NCBI GenBank assembly: GCA_963665665.1
Contig: OY762428.1
Span: 4,864,001-4,928,000 of the forward strand
DNA length: 64,000 bases
From: Candidatus Kapaibacterium sp.
GTDB lineage: Bacteria > Bacteroidota > Ignavibacteria > Kapaibacteriales > UBA2268
Direction: 5' to 3'
The translations under genes and the position numbers were made by a program. The notes beneath the pieces were generated by a model. The model saw only the letters and a program-made list of their open reading frames with translations, was not told where the DNA came from and ran no database searches. Shown here one piece after another: positions 6,064 through 61,577 of this stretch (position 1 is the stretch's first letter; the number at the start of each line of letters is the position of its first letter).

Positions 6064-7821
6064 TTATTGTTTAACAAATCTGATCACAGCTACTTCGCCC
6101 ATGTTTGTTTTCACCGAAGCAAGGTAGATACCCGGCTGCAGGCCGCTAAGATTAATATTTATTGTATATTCACCCGGACTGAGCAATTGTTCGTTCCGAA
6201 TTTCCCGGACAAAATCTCCGTTTGTTCTGTAAAGATTAATACTAACCTTTGCCGAATTATTTATCCTGAATTTCATTGATGTGGAATTCAGCGCCGGATT
6301 AGGAAAAATATTCTGTATGCTTACCGGGCCGGAAGATATCCTGCAAATATCATAGAAAGATTCGTCTTCGTTGAATCCCTTGCAGGCTTCTTCTTCAGGC
6401 ATTGCTCCTGAACGTATCTGCCTGAGTATTTCGGCTTCCTTTCTTAATTTTTTGGCATAACGATCCGGTAGTGCGTTTAAAAATTCATCCGTTGGATAGT
6501 ACCAGAGTACAACCCTTTCGGCGTAGTAGTCATCATGATTATCGAAATATTCATTCAAATTTATCTCTACCGGAACCATATCTTTGTAATAAGGATCGCT
6601 ATTTGTCAGGAAAAGCGGATGCCTCGGGTTATGGATGAAGAACAAGGGCGTTTTAAATACGCGATTAAGAATATTATCTCTTTTGTCTTTATAAGTACAT
6701 GTATAAAGAAGCGGCGAGATTCCGGAATACCCGTCAATACCTTGGCCGTCATAATTTTGCAGGTTGATATCCAATCCTATAGCAGATTTTATTTGTCCAA
6801 GGCGGTTCATTTCTTCGTTTGCGAGTTGTGCTTTTCTTCTCTTTTCTTCCGGCCAGCGGCTGTCATAACCATGATAGTCCAGGTCTTTCATCTTACGGCT
6901 TATTTCTTCTTTTTTATCTCTTATTTTCCAGTCTTTTATTTCGACGGCTATATGTTCTTTCACACAGAAGAGGCTTCCGTCCAAAGGATATTCGGCTTTT
7001 ACATATTTCTGAACCTCTTCACTATTGCGGTATTCATCCAGTCTTTTATAATCAATCGGGTGAATTCGGTCAGTTCTTTCAGTTATAAATTCAACTGTAT
7101 TGCCTGTTAACTTTACTCCGATCTTTTCAAGTTCTTCCCTGTTAAGATTCAGGACAACTATTCCGCCTATACTGTGCCCTGTTCTTTTATCGTTGGCCGA
7201 AGGGTGCAGAAGTATGCTGGTGTTATCTTTCCCTCCGCTTCCAATAGCAAATGATGTAGTGGTATTACTGCTACCGTTATTTTCCACTGATCTGAGTTTT
7301 CGGACAATTCTGCCTTTGTATTTTAAAACTCCGTTATTTTCTTCAATACTCTTTCCCTCGTTTGGATATTCATAATATTCAATTATCCTTCTCTGCTTAA
7401 TATCCTCTTTCTTTTCAGATTTGTCCTTTCCTTTTTCTTTTGGTGATTCATCTGAATTAATATTATCTGATATAATATTATTTTCTAATAATTTAACTGT
7501 ATTCACATCAGAATTGCTTTTATCGCTTTTCTCAGTCGTTTTCGTGATTATATTTGAATTTGCTGTGCCCAGGGCAGTTGTTGTTACAACGTTTTCATCC
7601 GCCTGGTTTGTGAATATCAGCATTAACGCGCTGACTAAAATACCTGCTCCCGTGAGTGGCATGATTAACCTCCTGAAAATCTTTGGTTTAACATTTGATA
7701 AATTCGTTTGTACAGATTTTTTATCAATAATGCTCCGGAGCATATCTTCGCTTAAAAGTTCTTCCCGGTTGCGCAATTGGCCGAGATCTTCCAAACTTTT
7801 ATTTAAATCGATTTTTTTCAT
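6064..7821 (-). CDS. Putative anti-sigma factor with internal TM helix and C-terminal T9SS type A sorting domain
   Basis: About 50-aa charged N-terminus, TM (LIMPLTGAGILVSALMLIF), low-complexity linker, CTD IFPNPA...LQPGIYLASVKT...RFVKQ; directly downstream of an ECF sigma gene. Confidence 0.7.
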   Translation of the reverse strand: MKKIDLNKSLEDLGQLRNREELLSEDMLRSIIDKKSVQTNLSNVKPKIFRRLIMPLTGAGILVSALMLIFTNQADENVVTTTALGTANSNIITKTTEKSDKSNSDVNTVKLLENNIISDNINSDESPKEKGKDKSEKKEDIKQRRIIEYYEYPNEGKSIEENNGVLKYKGRIVRKLRSVENNGSSNTTTSFAIGSGGKDNTSILLHPSANDKRTGHSIGGIVVLNLNREELEKIGVKLTGNTVEFITERTDRIHPIDYKRLDEYRNSEEVQKYVKAEYPLDGSLFCVKEHIAVEIKDWKIRDKKEEISRKMKDLDYHGYDSRWPEEKRRKAQLANEEMNRLGQIKSAIGLDINLQNYDGQGIDGYSGISPLLYTCTYKDKRDNILNRVFKTPLFFIHNPRHPLFLTNSDPYYKDMVPVEINLNEYFDNHDDYYAERVVLWYYPTDEFLNALPDRYAKKLRKEAEILRQIRSGAMPEEEACKGFNEDESFYDICRISSGPVSIQNIFPNPALNSTSMKFRINNSAKVSINLYRTNGDFVREIRNEQLLSPGEYTININLSGLQPGIYLASVKTNMGEVAVIRFVKQ

Positions 7822-8452: not shown

Positions 8453-8663
8453 AGAATTGCAAAATTATTTTTTTGGCCCCGGTGTTTGGCAATGATACTT
8501 AAGGAACAATATACATGTAATAATAATAATATCTAATATCTTGTAAAAAAATTGTATCTGAATCACAGCCACAGGAAGCAGGATGATTAACAACAATCAC
8601 GGGAATAAAGCCGGAGTAAGCTATCGGAAAGGATTCCAAAGCCGGCAGCGGGTTAATTACCCT

Positions 8664-9130
8664 CATCCGACAGAAATCCTGTGCTAAATGATCATTGAGT
8701 TTGCCGGGCATAGTAAACTTCAATGTTTGTATATCCTATATTCACCCGGAAAAAACAAATACCGGCTCTTCCGTACCAAAACATCAATTGAAAATAGGGA
8801 TCGACCGTTCTAATAGAACGAATTTCTATATCAAAAAAGTGAAACTCTGTGTTTTCTGAGTAGAATTTTACCTGAAAAAGTGTCTCGGAAGGCACGAGGG
8901 AACGCTCGGAAAGCATGGGGGAACGCTCGGAAAGCATGAGGGAATGCTCGGAAAGGACGAGGGAATGCTCGGAAGGCTCAGGGGAATACTCGGAAAGGAC
9001 GAGGGAACGCTCGGAAAGGACGGGGGAACGCTCGGAAAGGACGAGGGAATGCTCGGAAAGGACGGGGGAACGCTCGGAAAGGACGGGGGAACGCTCGGAA
9101 GGCTCAGGGGAATACTATTATTGCACAAAA
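8664..9130 (+). repeat. Dispersed 21-bp-periodic element, copy A (leader + 11 x 21-bp array + TTATTGCACAAAA)
   Basis: Array 8884-9114, consensus CTCGGAAAGGACGRGGGAAYG; leader 8664-8895 colinear with the reverse complement of 39924-40155. Confidence 0.9.
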
Positions 9131-9450
9131 CAAGGGATTCTATGCGTGATAAATCGTTTACGGAGGATATGAGAACAGCGACGAGTTCAGAGACCGCTAT
9201 CGCTGCAGGTCGGGCATTGATGCTACTAACTCGCGATACGTACAGATGGACGGAGCACGCGGCGGTATCGTTACCGGGGCCTGGCGAATAAAAAATACAA
9301 AGACAGTATTTTTACCTATTGCCATGATAAATATTTTACTTAATTTTGAAGTCGTTAACTTTATACTTTTGAAAAGTTTATGTTTTGATATGATTAGCAT
9401 GGTAAATTGACCTTTTTGTTTTTTGGAATTTAAGTGAAAGGACGGAAGAA

Positions 9451-10386
9451 ATGGAATTGAGTTTAAAAAAAGGCAGTGCCTTTTGGGATTACTTTTTCTC
9501 GACAATTGGCGCAGCTGTAATGGCCCTTGGAATAAGCGTTTTTCTGATTGATGCACAAGTCGTACCGGGAGGCGTAAGCGGACTCTCGATGGCTATTCAC
9601 TACTTATCAAACAAAACTCTCCCTGTTGGTTTGATGATATGGATTCTGAATGTTCCACTTTATATCTGGGGCCTTAAAGAACTTGGTAAACGTTTTGGCA
9701 TCAGGACATTTTATTCCTTCACCATGAACTCTTTCTTCATTGATTTCTTCAGGGGTGATATTCCGGGATTCGGTTTTATTCGCCTGCATGAATCTGAAAC
9801 CGTGAAACAGCTTCTCGAACACGACTTTTTCTTCCTGATACTTATCGGTTCTGTATTGCTCGGCACAGGACTTGGAATAATCTTCAAATTCAAGGGTACA
9901 ACGGCTGGTTCGGATATTGTTGCAGCTATTATGCAGAAACGATTCGGCATAAAACCCGGCCAGGCAATCATGATCATTGATTTCTTTGTGATCTCTCTTG
10001 CCGGTATAATAATCGGTGCCAAAGGCCTTTCCCCGGATAAGCCTGCGCTGGTTCTGACGCTATATGCCTTTTTCCTTTTGTTTGTCTCATCAAAAATCAT
10101 CGATGTTATATTGGATGGTTTTGACTATGCACGTGCCGCATATATTATATCTGATAAATATAATGAAATTTCCGATGCCATTGTCAGGGACCTGTCCCGC
10201 GGTGCTACTGCTATTAAATCCAGGGGGCTTTATAAAGGTGTTGACAGGGAAGTTATCATGACTGTGGTAACATTGAAGGAAATTGGGCGGCTTGAGGAAA
10301 TTATCCGCAAGATCGACCCGGACGCATTCGTGATTGTTCACACCGTACACGAGGTGGTAGGCCGGGGATTCCGGCGAAGGATATAA
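9451..10386 (+). CDS. YitT family membrane protein (DUF161/DUF2179)
   Basis: PGGVSGL, LNVPL, GTTAGSDI, RGAT, IDPDAFVIV..VHEVVGRGF. Confidence 0.9.
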   Translation: MELSLKKGSAFWDYFFSTIGAAVMALGISVFLIDAQVVPGGVSGLSMAIHYLSNKTLPVGLMIWILNVPLYIWGLKELGKRFGIRTFYSFTMNSFFIDFFRGDIPGFGFIRLHESETVKQLLEHDFFFLILIGSVLLGTGLGIIFKFKGTTAGSDIVAAIMQKRFGIKPGQAIMIIDFFVISLAGIIIGAKGLSPDKPALVLTLYAFFLLFVSSKIIDVILDGFDYARAAYIISDKYNEISDAIVRDLSRGATAIKSRGLYKGVDREVIMTVVTLKEIGRLEEIIRKIDPDAFVIVHTVHEVVGRGFRRRI

Positions 10387-10412
10387 TTTTTGCAAAATAT
10401 TTAATAATTGAT

Positions 10413-10451
10413 AATCGTCCGGCGAATGAACAAACCGGACGATTTTTTTTT
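10413..10451 (+). terminator. Intrinsic terminator
   Basis: aatcgtccgg...ccggacgatt followed by a T-run. Confidence 0.8.
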
Positions 10452-10681
10452 ACAACCAAATACTTATTTAAGATTAAACCATTAAGATTTTAATATCTTA
10501 TAAACCATTAAATATGGCCCGGTTTGTATTTTTATTATATCAAATGATATTGTATAAACTATTAAGTTATCATTTGAATTTTTCCTGCCGGCTTCATTCA
10601 ATTACTTTTCAGATTAGTTAGTTTTTCTTATTTTTGTTCTTTTTTAAATACTTGATTTTGCAGACGGAAGAAAGAATAGTT

Positions 10682-11284
10682 ATGGAAGGAAAGACATACG
10701 AGAGAACGGAAAGAAGAAAAGAAAAACTAATGAACGTATTGAAGAAAAGACAGCCCGAACTAACAATTATTCTTGAAAATATTAACGATCCTCATAATAT
10801 GTCGGCTTGCCTGCGTTCCTGTGATGCCGTAGGTATTATGAAAGTATATATGATATACCATAGTGGCCAGCCTTTCCCGAAGCTTGGTGCTCAAAGTTCC
10901 GCCAGTGCAAAAAAATGGGTGGAATACGAACGCTTCGATACTGTAGAAGAATGCTTTACGAAATTGCGTAATGATGGATATAAAATCTATACTACCCACA
11001 TGGGCGAGGATTCCGTTTCGCTGTACAGCCTTGAATTGACTGGTAAGGTTGCCCTGATGTTTGGAAATGAACATTCAGGTGTATCTGCAGAAGCTTATGA
11101 AAATGCCGACGGAAACTTTCTGATTCCTCAGCACGGAATGATACAAAGCCTTAATATATCCGTAGCATGTGCTGTTTCTCTTTTTGAAGCTCAAAGACAA
11201 AGGCAGGTAGCCGGAAAATATGACATCCCACAACTTTCGTCAACTGAACTTGACAGCAAATATTCCGAATGGTTAAAAAAATAG
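10682..11284 (+). CDS. trmH: tRNA (guanosine-2'-O)-methyltransferase, SpoU/TrmH family
   Basis: ENINDPHNMSACLRSCDAVG, FGNEHSG, IPQHGMIQSLNISVA. Confidence 0.85.
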   Translation: MEGKTYERTERRKEKLMNVLKKRQPELTIILENINDPHNMSACLRSCDAVGIMKVYMIYHSGQPFPKLGAQSSASAKKWVEYERFDTVEECFTKLRNDGYKIYTTHMGEDSVSLYSLELTGKVALMFGNEHSGVSAEAYENADGNFLIPQHGMIQSLNISVACAVSLFEAQRQRQVAGKYDIPQLSSTELDSKYSEWLKK

Positions 11285-11356: not shown

Positions 11357-13423
11357 ATGAGGCTTCCGTTCATATTCCTACTTTTTTTATTACCGCTAAA
11401 GATTTTTTCTGCCACGGAGAATCTTGATTCTCTTGAAAGTGCTCTGAAAATTGAAACAGTTGACAGTATAAGGGCAAAAATGCTAACTACTTTATCCAAA
11501 GAACATGCCAATAAAGGTTCGGATGAAGCACTTAAATATATTAATCGCCTCAGGGATATTTCTAAACAAAAGAATTATGGCAAACATTTAATTGATGTAG
11601 AAGCTAATTCTTTTATATATTATTCACGTAAAGGAAAACTGAAAGAAGCTCTGAAATATGGTGAAAAGATGTATTCACTTGCAAAGGCTCTTGAAAATCA
11701 GGAAAAAATGGCTGAAGCAAAGAATAAACTCGGTATTAATTATACAAGGCTCGGTGAATATGACAAAGCTGTTGAACTATTTACCGATGCAATTAAAATC
11801 TCGAAGAAACATAATATTCTAAATGTTGAAGCAAATTCTTATCTGATGCTGGGCATACTTAGTGAAAAAAGAAATAAAATTGAAGTAGCACACGATTATT
11901 TATTAAAAGCCCTTGATGCAGCAAACAAAAGCGATAAGAAAGATCGTTTATTACCAACAATTTATTCAAACTTATCAAGTTTCGAGATTTTACTCGGGCG
12001 TTATGATGAAGCTGCAAAACACCTGAATAATGTGATAGATATATATAAAAAGAAAAATGACCTGAACAGTTTGTCCATTGCATATAATAATAAAGCAATA
12101 TTATATTATCACCAGGAGGATTTTGAAACTGCGCTGAAGTGGTTCGAAGAATCAAAAAAGCTGAAAGTTAAACAGGAAAATATCATTGGTATTGCTCTTA
12201 TAGATATGAATATGGCCGAAATACTAATGAATATGAAAAATTATAAGAAAGCATTAAGAATTCTGGATTCTTCGAAAGTTGTATTTGATAGTACCGGAAC
12301 TATTGAATTATTAATTGAAGCATACAATACCGAAAACAAAATCAATATAGCCAGGGGGGATTTTAAAGCAGCACATAAATCTCTTGAAATGTATCATAAA
12401 TTAAATGATAGCATTCATAATAAGGCAAGTGAAAATAAGATAGCTGAAATTGAAACTCATTTCAAAGTTGCAGAAAAAGAATGGGAAAACGAACGATTGA
12501 AGGAACAGTCAGAAAACCAGAATTTAATTATCATTATTATTTTAATCCTGTCTTCCCTGATATTGATCCTGGCAGTTGCTTTAATATTTAAAAACAGATC
12601 GATGAATAAAACCAATGAAATATTGAAGGATCTTAATACTAAACTTGAAGATAAGCAGCTAAGAATCGAGAATCAGAACTACGAACTTGCCGAGTTAAAT
12701 TCCGACCTGGTTAAAACCAACCGGGAACTAAGTGAACTCAATGCAATGAAAGATAAATTTTTCTCTATCATTTCCCATGATTTGAAAAGCCCTCTCTCAT
12801 CCCTTTACTTAATGATTGAAATGCTCGTAGAGAACTATAATGATTTTTCCGGAGATGAATTGGAAGAAACACTTGAGCTATTAAAAGCGTCATCACGAAA
12901 CACCAGTTCTCTCCTTGAAAATCTACTGACCTGGTCGAGAACACAGATGAACAAAGTTGATTTCAACCCGGAACTGATTTCAATGCATAATCTTGCTGAA
13001 AGTACCATCAATGCTCTACAGTCTTCTGCATATATCAAACGAATAGAAATTGAAAATGAAATACCTGATAATCTGAAAGTATCATGCGATTATCCCATGA
13101 TATCAACTGTTATCAGAAACATCACGAACAATTCAATCAAATTTACACCTGAAGGCGGTAAAATAATTGTATCAGCAGCTGATGAAAAAGATTATTTGAG
13201 GATATCGATAGAAGACAATGGTGTGGGAATGAATGAAGATGCAAAGAACAATTTATTCCTGCTTGACAAAGCCAGCTCTACACCTGGAACGAATAATGAA
13301 AAAGGTACCGGTTTAGGACTTATTATTGTTAAGGAATTTATCGAAAAACATGAAGGAAAAATCTGGGCTGAGAGTGAAAAAGGAATAGGAACAACATTTC
13401 ATTTTACCATAAAAAAAGACTGA
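11357..13423 (+). CDS. TPR-repeat sensor histidine kinase
   Basis: Signal peptide, TPR repeats, TM, H-box SIISHDLKSP, N-box NNSIKFT, DNGVG, GTGLGL. Confidence 0.92.
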   Translation: MRLPFIFLLFLLPLKIFSATENLDSLESALKIETVDSIRAKMLTTLSKEHANKGSDEALKYINRLRDISKQKNYGKHLIDVEANSFIYYSRKGKLKEALKYGEKMYSLAKALENQEKMAEAKNKLGINYTRLGEYDKAVELFTDAIKISKKHNILNVEANSYLMLGILSEKRNKIEVAHDYLLKALDAANKSDKKDRLLPTIYSNLSSFEILLGRYDEAAKHLNNVIDIYKKKNDLNSLSIAYNNKAILYYHQEDFETALKWFEESKKLKVKQENIIGIALIDMNMAEILMNMKNYKKALRILDSSKVVFDSTGTIELLIEAYNTENKINIARGDFKAAHKSLEMYHKLNDSIHNKASENKIAEIETHFKVAEKEWENERLKEQSENQNLIIIIILILSSLILILAVALIFKNRSMNKTNEILKDLNTKLEDKQLRIENQNYELAELNSDLVKTNRELSELNAMKDKFFSIISHDLKSPLSSLYLMIEMLVENYNDFSGDELEETLELLKASSRNTSSLLENLLTWSRTQMNKVDFNPELISMHNLAESTINALQSSAYIKRIEIENEIPDNLKVSCDYPMISTVIRNITNNSIKFTPEGGKIIVSAADEKDYLRISIEDNGVGMNEDAKNNLFLLDKASSTPGTNNEKGTGLGLIIVKEFIEKHEGKIWAESEKGIGTTFHFTIKKD

Positions 13424-39347: not shown

Positions 39348-39563
39348 AATATTTTAAAGATATTATCACTTCCACGGTAGGATAAATATAAATTTTCCGG
39401 GTCTTTCAATAATTTTATTTGGCTATATCAGTAGACGTTTGTAATTGAATTTCAGCGGAACGTATCATTTTCCTGCATAAATTTGGAGCAATAGTTAATA
39501 AATTATATAATTCATTGATATTACATATCTTAATACAGCTGCTACACCATCCGGAATTGATTT

Positions 39564-40155
39564 TTTGTGCAATAAATCCTTTGATTTGAGCTTTCCGAGC
39601 GTTCCCCCATGCTTTCCGAGCGTTCCCCCGAGCCTGCCGAGCGTTCCCCCGAGCTTCCTGAGCGTTCCCCCGAGCTTTCCGAGCATTCCCTCATGCTTTC
39701 CGAGCGTTCACCCGAGCTTTCCGAGCGTTCACCCGAGCTTTCCGAGCATTCCCTCATGCTTTCCGAGCATTCCCCCCAGCTTTCCGAGCGTTCCCCCGAG
39801 CTTTCCGAGCGTTCCCTCATGCTTTCCGAGCGTTCACCCGAGCTTTCCGAGTATTCTCCCGAGCCTGATTATCGCTGATATATGCCGTCTTAGCGTTGGT
39901 TAGTGCCGTCTTAGCGTTGGTTTGTGCTTTCAAAAACACTTTTCCAGGTAAAATTTTACTAAGATTACACAGAATTTTACTCTTTTGATAAGAAATTTCG
40001 TTCTATTGATCCGTTCGATCCATTTTATCAATTAATATTTTGATCTGATAATGCATCTGTTTGCTTTTGCCGGGTGATTGTTTTATTTATAAATATTGAA
40101 GTTTGCTTTGCCCGGCAATGTTGATAATCCATCGGCACATAATTTCCATCGGATG
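39564..40155 (-). repeat. Dispersed 21-bp-periodic element, copy B (leader + 3 variant units + 13 x 21-bp array + TTATTGCACAAAA)
   Basis: Array 39590-39862 (plus-strand GCTTTCCGAGCGTTCCCCCGA), variant units 39863-39925, leader homologous to 8664-8895. Confidence 0.9.
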
Positions 40156-40244
40156 GAATGTGAAATACTTATCATGCCTGGCCCGAACAGGATTATCGTT
40201 TCAATCTGTCATGTTTTTATAGTTCTGTATTAAATTACTTATGG

Positions 40245-59828: not shown

Positions 59829-59886
59829 ATTCCGATGAATAGGGGGATGACGGATAGGAATATCTTCCTGGGACAGATTTGCCATT

Positions 59887-60075
59887 ATTTACCACAAAAT
59901 ATCAATCATATATCCCACAATTCTGATTTTTTATATCAAAATAGTGATCCTATTGCTGAGAAAATCAATTCTTTATCTCATAATATTGATTCTTACTTTC
60001 AAAATTGTGAATCAATATCATAAAAATCTGATCATTTGAACTATAATTCCGATTCTTTATTTCAAAATAATAAAT
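59887..60075. repeat. Degenerate AT-rich 21-bp tandem array (9 units)
   Basis: Units such as ttttatatcaaaatagtgatc, ctttatctcataatattgatt, ctttatttcaaaataataaat in exact 21-nt register. Confidence 0.8.
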
Positions 60076-60662
60076 ACACGGATTATTTGAATGAAGCCTA
60101 ATCCTGTAAATGATTTGATGTGTGCAATTGGTTAGTATCGGATAATCGGGTTAATATTTAGTAAGTGTAATCTATTATATATTTTATTTATCAGAGTATA
60201 TAATCATCATAAATTTATATTTTATCGGTATATTTTATTAAAATTTTAATCTATTTTATGCTTGATATAGTTTATCTAACTAAATTCCTTATTTATATTA
60301 TTGATTAATTTATGTATATGATAAAATAATGAGTTATGCTAATTGTATATTATATTTGTCCTATTATATAATAAAGTGTTATAATTTATTAGGCTAATCT
60401 GTTTTTTACTAAATAAGGATGCTTATTTAATATGAAATGAAATGGAATTAATATTATGAGTTAATTATTTACTAATATGAATATGTTATTTAATATTTTT
60501 GATTGATTATTTATGGTTTTTGGTTAGGGAATTACTAAATTATTTAATATAAATATTAATTGTTATTATTTTAATTGTTGTATAAGTAGATTATTTCTTT
60601 GAACTTATAATTTAATTACTTATATTAATATTAGTAATCATATTATATATCGGGGAGATATA

Positions 60663-61577
60663 ATGTCTGTAATACTAAACAATAATTTCTCGCAGGATAC
60701 TCATGATATCAGGGCTGAAAGGCTTAGGAAAATCCAGGATAATCATGATTTTATTCGTGATGAGCTTCATGCGCCGGAGGAGATTTGTATTTGGGCTGAG
60801 GACTGCTATGATATATTCATGGATAAGATTAGTTCGTCGGCGGTGGACACTGCGCAGTGGCATTCACAGACCTTTTCGGTGCAGAACATGCTTAGGGAGC
60901 TGACGGAATGTTATCAGATTGTGCGGGCGTTGGGTATTCCGATTTACGCGGATGATCAGAAGCATCTGAAAGATTTTGATTTTGGTCTGAGGTTCCCAAA
61001 GTCGCGCCTGGAGATGCTTTCGAGGGCCGAGCTGATTATTGAAGTGCACAACCGGCACGTTCAGGAGGGGCTGCCGAAAACTATTCCGCAGCTGATGATC
61101 GACAGGCTGGCTGCGGCGATTGCCGAAACGGAGCTGGCGATGGAGGAACAGGAGCAGAAAAAGAAGCGCGCGATGCACAGCACTGCGGAGCTGAAGGAGC
61201 TGATGAAGGCCGACGAGTGGCTGCTGACCTTGCTGAAGGGCTGGTGGCGCGGGGTGATGGGCAAGGATTCGGTGCTGATACAGAAAATCGGGATGGTGAA
61301 CCTGAAAAGGCGCGGAAACCCGCACAGGCCCGAGGCTCCGGCGGATTTTGACTATGATGCCGCGCAGGAAGTTTTTTCCTGGCCGGAGGTGGAGGGCGCG
61401 ACAAGCTACGAGATTGTGACGCGGAGCGCAAAAAAGGGTAAAAAATGGCGGAAAGCCTGGCGGGGACGCGTTCTGAGCGCTATGCTGCCGCCACCGGAGA
61501 GTCCGTCCGAGTACGCCGTGCGCGCGCGCAACCATAATGGCTACGGGCTGATAAGCGCTGTGGTGGCGGTGGGATAG
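60663..61577 (+). CDS. Hypothetical protein: helical N-terminal region + C-terminal fibronectin type III-like domain
   Basis: GGGGAG RBS; PEAPADF..FSWPEVEGATSYEI..YAVRARNHNGYG Fn3 pattern; no signal peptide. Confidence 0.8.
   Translation: MSVILNNNFSQDTHDIRAERLRKIQDNHDFIRDELHAPEEICIWAEDCYDIFMDKISSSAVDTAQWHSQTFSVQNMLRELTECYQIVRALGIPIYADDQKHLKDFDFGLRFPKSRLEMLSRAELIIEVHNRHVQEGLPKTIPQLMIDRLAAAIAETELAMEEQEQKKKRAMHSTAELKELMKADEWLLTLLKGWWRGVMGKDSVLIQKIGMVNLKRRGNPHRPEAPADFDYDAAQEVFSWPEVEGATSYEIVTRSAKKGKKWRKAWRGRVLSAMLPPPESPSEYAVRARNHNGYGLISAVVAVG

Follow-up and report, generated by a model that had tools for sequence, protein, structure and literature searches.

The BrickBuilt MITE of Porphyromonas gingivalis (Klein et al. 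2015, PMC4596501) is, like the element reported here, found in a member of the Bacteroidota and, as presented in the body of that article, likewise composed of a leader, a tandem array and a tail. By the same account it resembles our element in occurring in about 20 intergenic copies, in having both terminal repeats in only 4 of them, and in sharing its ends with a resident insertion sequence (IS). A second line of work concerns bacterial tandem repeats of constant 20–21-nt size and variable sequence (Subirana and Messeguer 2021, PMC8161180); that such repeats are fixed in size and free in sequence is, going by the main text, a published open question. For the ISL3 group of IS, the text of PMC12554700 describes the member ISAeme19 as having 8-bp direct repeats and imperfect terminal repeats.

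We analysed a stretch of 64,000 nucleotides from Candidatus Kapaibacterium sp. (contig OY762428.1, positions 4,864,001 to 4,928,000; hereafter the window), which holds two copies, A and B, of a leader joined to an array of 21-bp units. In our reading, to which we give a probability of about 0.7, these are eroded members of a minisatellite-bearing MITE that is BrickBuilt-like but ISL3-derived and carries captured promoter cargo. The element would be a second case of a minisatellite-bearing MITE, and the source of its leader, array and tail can be named, namely the upstream region of a real gene, which suggests how such elements arise.

Layout of the two window copies

Positions 8664–8895 align with the reverse complement of 39924–40155 over 232 bp, ungapped, at 73.3% identity, and both leaders run into period-21 arrays (TRF: 8884–9100, 10.3 copies; 39588–39864, 13.2 copies), as the initial annotation had described. 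It had also placed the copies correctly among their neighbours: copy A is flanked by divergent genes, for an ECF sigma factor and YitT, and copy B by convergent ones, for a methyltransferase and a carboxypeptidase-regulatory-domain protein.

In copy A the minus strand carries a dead 5' fragment of a gene of the helical+FN3 family (8620–8711, about 20–30 codons, ATG at 8711), recognised from a profile match at 8659–8724, an alignment to the intact gene and a pN/pS of 1.19; the boundary near 8620 is approximate. The leader itself (8712–8883, minus strand) corresponds to the 5'UTR, the ribosome-binding site and, going by its position only, the likely promoter region of the captured gene. The array (8884–9114, plus strand) has 11 units of a G-rich 21-mer, type T2, and is followed by a 54-bp tail remnant (9115–9168, plus strand) that matches the sister copy at G000:5111453 at 91%, where G000 denotes this genome, one contig of 5.46 Mb. 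Copy B leads from its leader (39936–40107, plus strand; the captured gene's 5'UTR and ribosome-binding site) through three units of a second, related 21-mer type, T1, and a one-unit linker (39852–39935, minus strand), all in register with T2, into a G-rich T2 array of 12–13 units (39588–39851, minus strand). Its tail (39365–39587, minus strand) is homologous to sequence that precedes the intact gene's array on its upstream side, and its dead 5' gene fragment (40108–40221, plus strand) has the start codon TTG at 40108.

Several details of the initial annotation needed amendment. The 13-mer that it reported past the arrays is present in both copies; the two instances are offset by exactly 21 bp and therefore do not occupy the same position, and the motif is not family-wide. 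The arrays are more alike than the leaders (82–84% against 73–75%), which falls short of the 'far more' that had been claimed. The statement that no frame stays open in both copies does not hold for the opposite strand, where a single frame runs through both arrays without a stop and each copy contains a dead gene start; the conclusion that the copies are non-coding stands. An assembly artefact, which the annotation had considered, can be discounted because in a second strain from another study contigs 17 and 23 carry the left flank of copy A joined to the start of its leader and the right flank joined to the end of its array. The site of copy A, the copy for which the comparison was made, is occupied in both samples (this genome and the second strain), with no empty site observed. 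When the ends of copies A and B were searched for the IS ends described below, alignment scores lay within the shuffle range.

A dispersed family and its insertion sequence ends

The initial annotation described a single pair of copies, whereas profile searches of the genome gave 22 loci for the leader, 22 for the gene fragment and 20 for the tail. T2-like arrays number 27 and hold 333 units in total, and period 21 is dominant among tandem repeats genome-wide (160 TRF rows, each with at least 4 copies). An alignment of 21 leader copies has no indel in 205 columns at a mean identity of only 78%, with the highest conservation in the 70 bp adjoining the array (0.86–0.93); adenine-biased, DGR-like mutagenesis of the leader was not seen. 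The arrays follow a strict lattice. T1, linker and T2 belong to the same lattice, T1 and T2 agreeing at 13 of 21 positions, array length differs between copies by whole units only, and the leader-to-tail distance is identical modulo 21 in 20/20 copies of 9–30 units (those with a tail match; two without one, copy A among them, were left out). A CRISPR array was rejected on the grounds that the units stand head to tail without unique spacers and have no Rfam match, and a G-quadruplex role was set aside because relatives' arrays range from 16 to 76% GC.

Pairwise similarity among most copies ends raggedly. Eight copies nevertheless have a common left end, 314–317 bp beyond the leader end, and four have a common right end, 415–443 bp past the array. 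These two ends are imperfect inverted repeats of each other, and the same ends bound a 1501-bp IS at G000:2358949-2360449. The two ORFs of this partner IS score above the ISAon1 cut-offs (455 vs 250; 120 vs 55), while with the general ISL3 model NF033550 the IS does not reach the cut-off (154 vs 180); it holds the only ISL3 transposase in the genome, which lies outside the elements. Left ends align to the IS with scores of 28–50 against shuffle maxima of 21–26, and right ends with 52–84 against 23–27, above all 300 shuffles in 8/8 and 4/4 cases respectively. The element right end also translates like the C-terminus of the ISAon1 transposase, and the element ends are only 77–88% identical to this sole IS remaining in the genome. 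As a separate observation, an orphan ISAon1 end of 104 bp at G000:4044991-4045094 is 92% identical to the intact IS.

The 22 elements thus comprise 8 with the IS left end, 4 with a full and 2 with a partial right end, and 4 with both ends (G000:1573696-1574928, 4247893-4248876, 4735498-4736755 and 5257368-5258284). The partner IS is flanked by an 8-bp duplication (8/8), and the target duplications of the four complete copies are 8/8, 8/8 (poly-A), 6/8 and none, flank matches for which the chance is 4e-5 at 8/8 and 0.007 at 6/8 or better. Complete copies measure 917–1258 bp and have no transposase gene; two of the four exceed the 1000-bp MITE size given in the main text of PMC4596501. The family combines several marks of a MITE, namely terminal inverted repeats matching an IS, target duplications of the partner's length, and small size in many copies without a transposase. 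The proposal of a non-autonomous mobile element is supported by these complete copies elsewhere in the genome, with their ISAon1 ends and target duplications; the accompanying remark that terminal repeats and transposase are missing is true of the window, whereas the genome holds a matching IS.

The IS left end is absent from 14/22 loci, both window copies included, and in two groups of copies the left part is of another kind. The IS-ended copies occupy scattered positions in the leader tree, with which the tail tree conflicts for several copies; this pattern fits common descent with recombination and erosion without proving it. We infer that the 14 loci descend from IS-ended copies.

On this evidence we suggest that the element is a non-autonomous transposon (MITE-like, 0.9–1.3 kb) that an ISAon1/ISL3 transposase would have mobilised in trans. 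Most probably the DNA upstream of a family gene was caught between two ISAon1 ends and the captured segment then copied round the chromosome by in-trans transposition. A complete copy reads as the IS left end (45–65 bp), the reversed dead gene start and 5'UTR, 9–30 units of the 21-bp lattice, reversed upstream DNA of the gene, a REP-like piece, and the IS right end with the last ~26 transposase codons. Most copies would have had their ends lost or replaced through deletion and recombination between copies, and unit number would have changed by slippage or unequal exchange.

Beyond G000, a search of 30 relatives from other genera with the DNA of copy A gave no match, and no complete element was found in 5 further genomes, which yielded a single 89-bp array match. 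Within G000, a leader of a second family, about 225 bp long and almost free of gaps, precedes related arrays at nine loci (G000:461289, 501513, 787903, 841967, 2650321, 3968589, 4056994, 4331377 and 5414333), at which no gene start or IS end was found. Separately, G000:617626-617697 carries the element's gene fragment with neither leader nor array.

The captured gene start and arrays at homologous genes

In 20/20 translated copies the strand opposite to the array has a start codon 173 bp from it (19 ATG, 1 TTG), followed by at least 22 open codons. One of the 22 leader loci runs into an intact 425-aa gene, P0001 (G000:2118628), upstream of which lie the same leader, T2 array and tail as in the element. 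The gap-free alignment of element copies with P0001 covers the UTR and about 20 codons and in some cases, copy A included, extends to about codon 30. Judged from these alignments, the leader is, on its other strand, the 5'UTR, ribosome site and first 20–30 codons of a helical+FN3 gene, an origin that the initial annotation missed in proposing an undescribed element of leader and array. The captured gene fragment is dead, with no selection on the peptide: pN/pS is 1.19 over 19 of the 22 loci, a set from which the donor and two loci lacking part of the fragment were omitted. The array is cargo inherited from the upstream region of this gene family and is older than the MITE.

The P0001 protein is predicted to have long helices (residues 14–209) and two FN3 domains (pLDDT 88.8), and it matches the PQLLE family NF052641 weakly (32.4 bits vs a cut-off of 80, E 7e-8). 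No catalytic family was found for the donor-family protein, and scanning against Pfam gave no Rep family. The proteins of the family encoded next to the arrays are acidic (33/34 below pI 7, median pI 4.58), which argues against their binding the array directly. In searches for the fold of the helical domain FN3 crowded the results, both as matches to the full model and as repeats in the representative search, and the helical domain folded alone gave a pLDDT of 43.5. In the Atlas, clusters stand at 0.93–0.94 without a name, and a lead to the helical DUF6261 proteins at 0.84. The donor protein's relatives carry the label Candidatus Kapabacteria or Kapaibacterium; T9SS genes are present in G000.

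P0001 has eight paralogs in the genome, six of them 94–97% identical. About 800 bp of shared upstream DNA adjoins four paralogs directly and is split off by an insertion, which we take to be IS3-like, in two; the dispersed paralog cassettes stand mostly between or beside REP-like palindromes, and one of the six similar cassettes has an internal deletion. One paralog is in the window, an intact short gene (304 aa; 60663–61577, plus strand) that lies outside the element and belongs to the family from which the cargo derives; together with about 800 bp of A/T-rich upstream DNA, which starts with an apparent decayed repeat, it spans 59860–61577 (plus strand). The genome's other large 21-bp array family has copies upstream of one paralog and downstream of another (G000:1352685, 4944127). 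That this family of ~50 copies is the 5'UTR of the paralog at G000:1352685 was considered and dropped, as no homology reached the gene start. The donor gene is surrounded by a polysaccharide cluster, with a long-period repeat tract among the regions 7532–7747, 9950–11140 and 12993–13373 of its locus (L001); a small ORF beside it presumably resembles the N-terminus of an IS21 transposase, and a neighbouring gene is presumably of the GxxExxY type.

At homologous genes outside G000, a period-21 array was found within 800 bp upstream in 20/30 cases and downstream in 1/29, or strictly in 19/30 and 0/29 when one locus counted on both sides, with a 9-bp-based repeat, is excluded. These counts come from 37 loci, after the upstream count had set aside 7 (4 of insufficient length and 3 with at least 100 N; two of the seven had an array anyway) and the downstream count 8. 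Counted by source, 13/20 have the upstream array; as kin are not independent, the Fisher value is an overstatement. The background is 4 arrays in 398 kb from three genomes, one of the four lying about 100 bp upstream of another family gene. Among PQLLE-profile loci, 12/27 have a 21/42-bp array upstream (13 including one with a mis-set start), and among DUF6261 loci 0/3. The units vary from locus to locus, are mostly unrelated in appearance and are non-coding. The array is absent at 10–11 of the 30 genes, several of them in the same gene context in related genomes, which speaks against a universal rule; family genes without it include L038, L039, L102, L037 and L043, and the position of L038 and L039 behind the same upstream gene suggests a vertically inherited array-less branch.

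Independent N-terminal remnants consisting of array, UTR and the first 35–50 codons occur four times in genome G556 (L118–L121, three with a readable array) and once in G599 (L114), with breaks that cluster early in the ~400-codon gene. The array and gene-start remnants of another genome have no DNA-level match to the IS ends of G000, and such remnants can therefore arise without this MITE. Other arrangements were also seen. At L127:1300-1780 (G556) two head-to-head 21-bp arrays, one T1-related, precede A/T-rich DNA, a ribosome site and a five-codon family-like gene start, and stacked 21-bp arrays with differing units occur at L132:8863-9668 and L133:14899-15341 (G556) and at L146 (G510). No family gene was detected near these three; past the L132 array come a ribosome site and an ORF of 18 codons.

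Alternative readings and known systems

In the main rival history, array and gene would form a cassette that propagates itself or moves by REP-linked means and degenerates to an array with a gene start, the IS ends having joined one remnant late and marking a minority of copies. Several observations agree with this: there are eight paralogs, six of them 94–97% identical and sharing upstream DNA, most stand beside REP-like palindromes, a Y1 transposase is encoded in the genome, the nine second-leader loci have no IS ends, and the five remnants in G556 and G599, broken at about codons 35–50, look like products of such decay. Yet IS-ended copies form one clade in 0/200 bootstrap trees, although starred branches still allow a single origin; moreover, a copy without the left end carries a partial right end, and no catalytic family was found for the protein. 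We regard this history as rather improbable. Somewhat less probable still, in our estimate, is that selection maintains the copies as portable sites for regulation or nucleoid organisation, either phased binding platforms or outward promoters, as reported for segments of BrickBuilt. The gap-free leaders with their well conserved array side, the exact 21-bp register and the retention of copy A in the second strain are what selection would leave behind, but recombination between copies could keep leaders gap-free without it. The genes flanking copy A have nothing in common with those flanking copy B, terminators are as frequent as expected by chance, and a promoter scan, which does not cover Bacteroidota promoters, gave a single sigma-70-like match within the leader of copy A.

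Two further readings place the function in a product of the array. A repeated RNA antitoxin or guide for the downstream protein, as in type III toxin–antitoxin systems, would account for an array upstream of a gene, and the early breaks would fit loss of a harmful gene that leaves orphan antitoxins. It is very unlikely: Rfam gave 0 matches on the window, the consensus fold of the leader is not beyond that of shuffled columns (−3.1 and −4.0 kcal/mol), there was no real PADLOC match (1/34 at E 0.008), and known type III toxin–antitoxin units are longer than the 21-bp units here. The templates for a repetitive RNA suggested by the initial annotation find no support in the same Rfam and folding results. 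That the arrays encode heptad-repeat peptides, or the leader a small protein, hardly deserves credence. One frame is nearly stop-free across the arrays, the leader start opens into at least 22 codons in all 20 copies translated, and T2 varies least at one of the codon positions (0.15/0.06/0.21). T1, however, has the opposite pattern, codon-phased variation is found in 0/24 arrays (from 28 listed loci, two being out for want of a clean array and the last two giving no row), some arrays have stops in all three gene-strand frames, pN/pS is 1.19, and a stop-free fragment has a chance probability of 0.30. A heptad-repeat coding gene, for which neither a conserved open frame nor codon-phased variation was found, is thus largely refuted.

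We therefore retain the reading of an ISL3-derived MITE with captured cargo. To a fair degree it explains the mobile element, though not the fixed 21-bp period upstream of the gene family. Most likely the array would act in cis at the intact gene under a length rule of two helical turns, and our best guess for its role there is one set by helical phase; slippage in register would by itself preserve the 21-bp period as well. The initial annotation had also raised two helical turns; the register is exact in all 20 measurable copies and the period is kept across genomes, but the adjacent protein family is acidic. More tentatively, the 21-bp array and the helical+FN3 (PQLLE-like) gene might be an undescribed two-part system in which about ten units are needed in cis and the two-turn period matters while the sequence does not. 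The array would be renewed or kept at each mobile copy of the gene and survive gene loss with the first 20–50 codons, and the IS would have made this module a portable cassette that spread about twenty times here. If so, the gene family would be the first handle on constant-size 20–21-nt bacterial repeats.

Among known systems, plasmid iterons have a spacing of about two turns, beside A/T-rich DNA and upstream of a gene. The arrays here are chromosomal and multi-copy instead, and the adjacent protein, with helices and two FN3 domains, is no Rep; an iteron replication origin was rejected for want of an adjacent Rep initiator. The PQLLE family (NF052641) has 21/42-bp arrays upstream of many profile loci, as at the donor, although the donor scores 32 against the cut-off of 80 and has added FN3 domains. 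The constant-size repeats of PMC8161180 agree with ours, as far as the main text describes them, in fixed period, lineage-specific sequence and mostly non-coding location, whereas the arrays here keep to a single gene family and a single position; that text names no such link and does not contain the word 'upstream'. The tie to one family and one position makes the question of these repeats testable. Search listings of the open-access literature showed no paper on the element or on the gene–array pairing; the supplements of PMC8161180 and PMC4596501, and an earlier 1241-genome survey cited by PMC8161180, lie outside that scope and may list such arrays.

With the ISAon1/ISL3 insertion sequences (NF049916, NF049917, PF01610) the element shares its terminal repeats, 8-bp duplication, A/T-rich targets and the C-terminal part of the transposase, and differs from them in lacking a transposase and carrying cargo. 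BrickBuilt, according to the main text of PMC4596501, has IS5-type 12-bp ends and a 23-bp unit, against ISL3/ISAon1 ends and a 21-bp unit here. Unlike BrickBuilt as described there, the present element has a uniform 8-bp duplication, keeps a transposase remnant, and has a leader and tail traceable to the upstream region of an identifiable gene. It works like BrickBuilt, yet it is no member of BrickBuilt.
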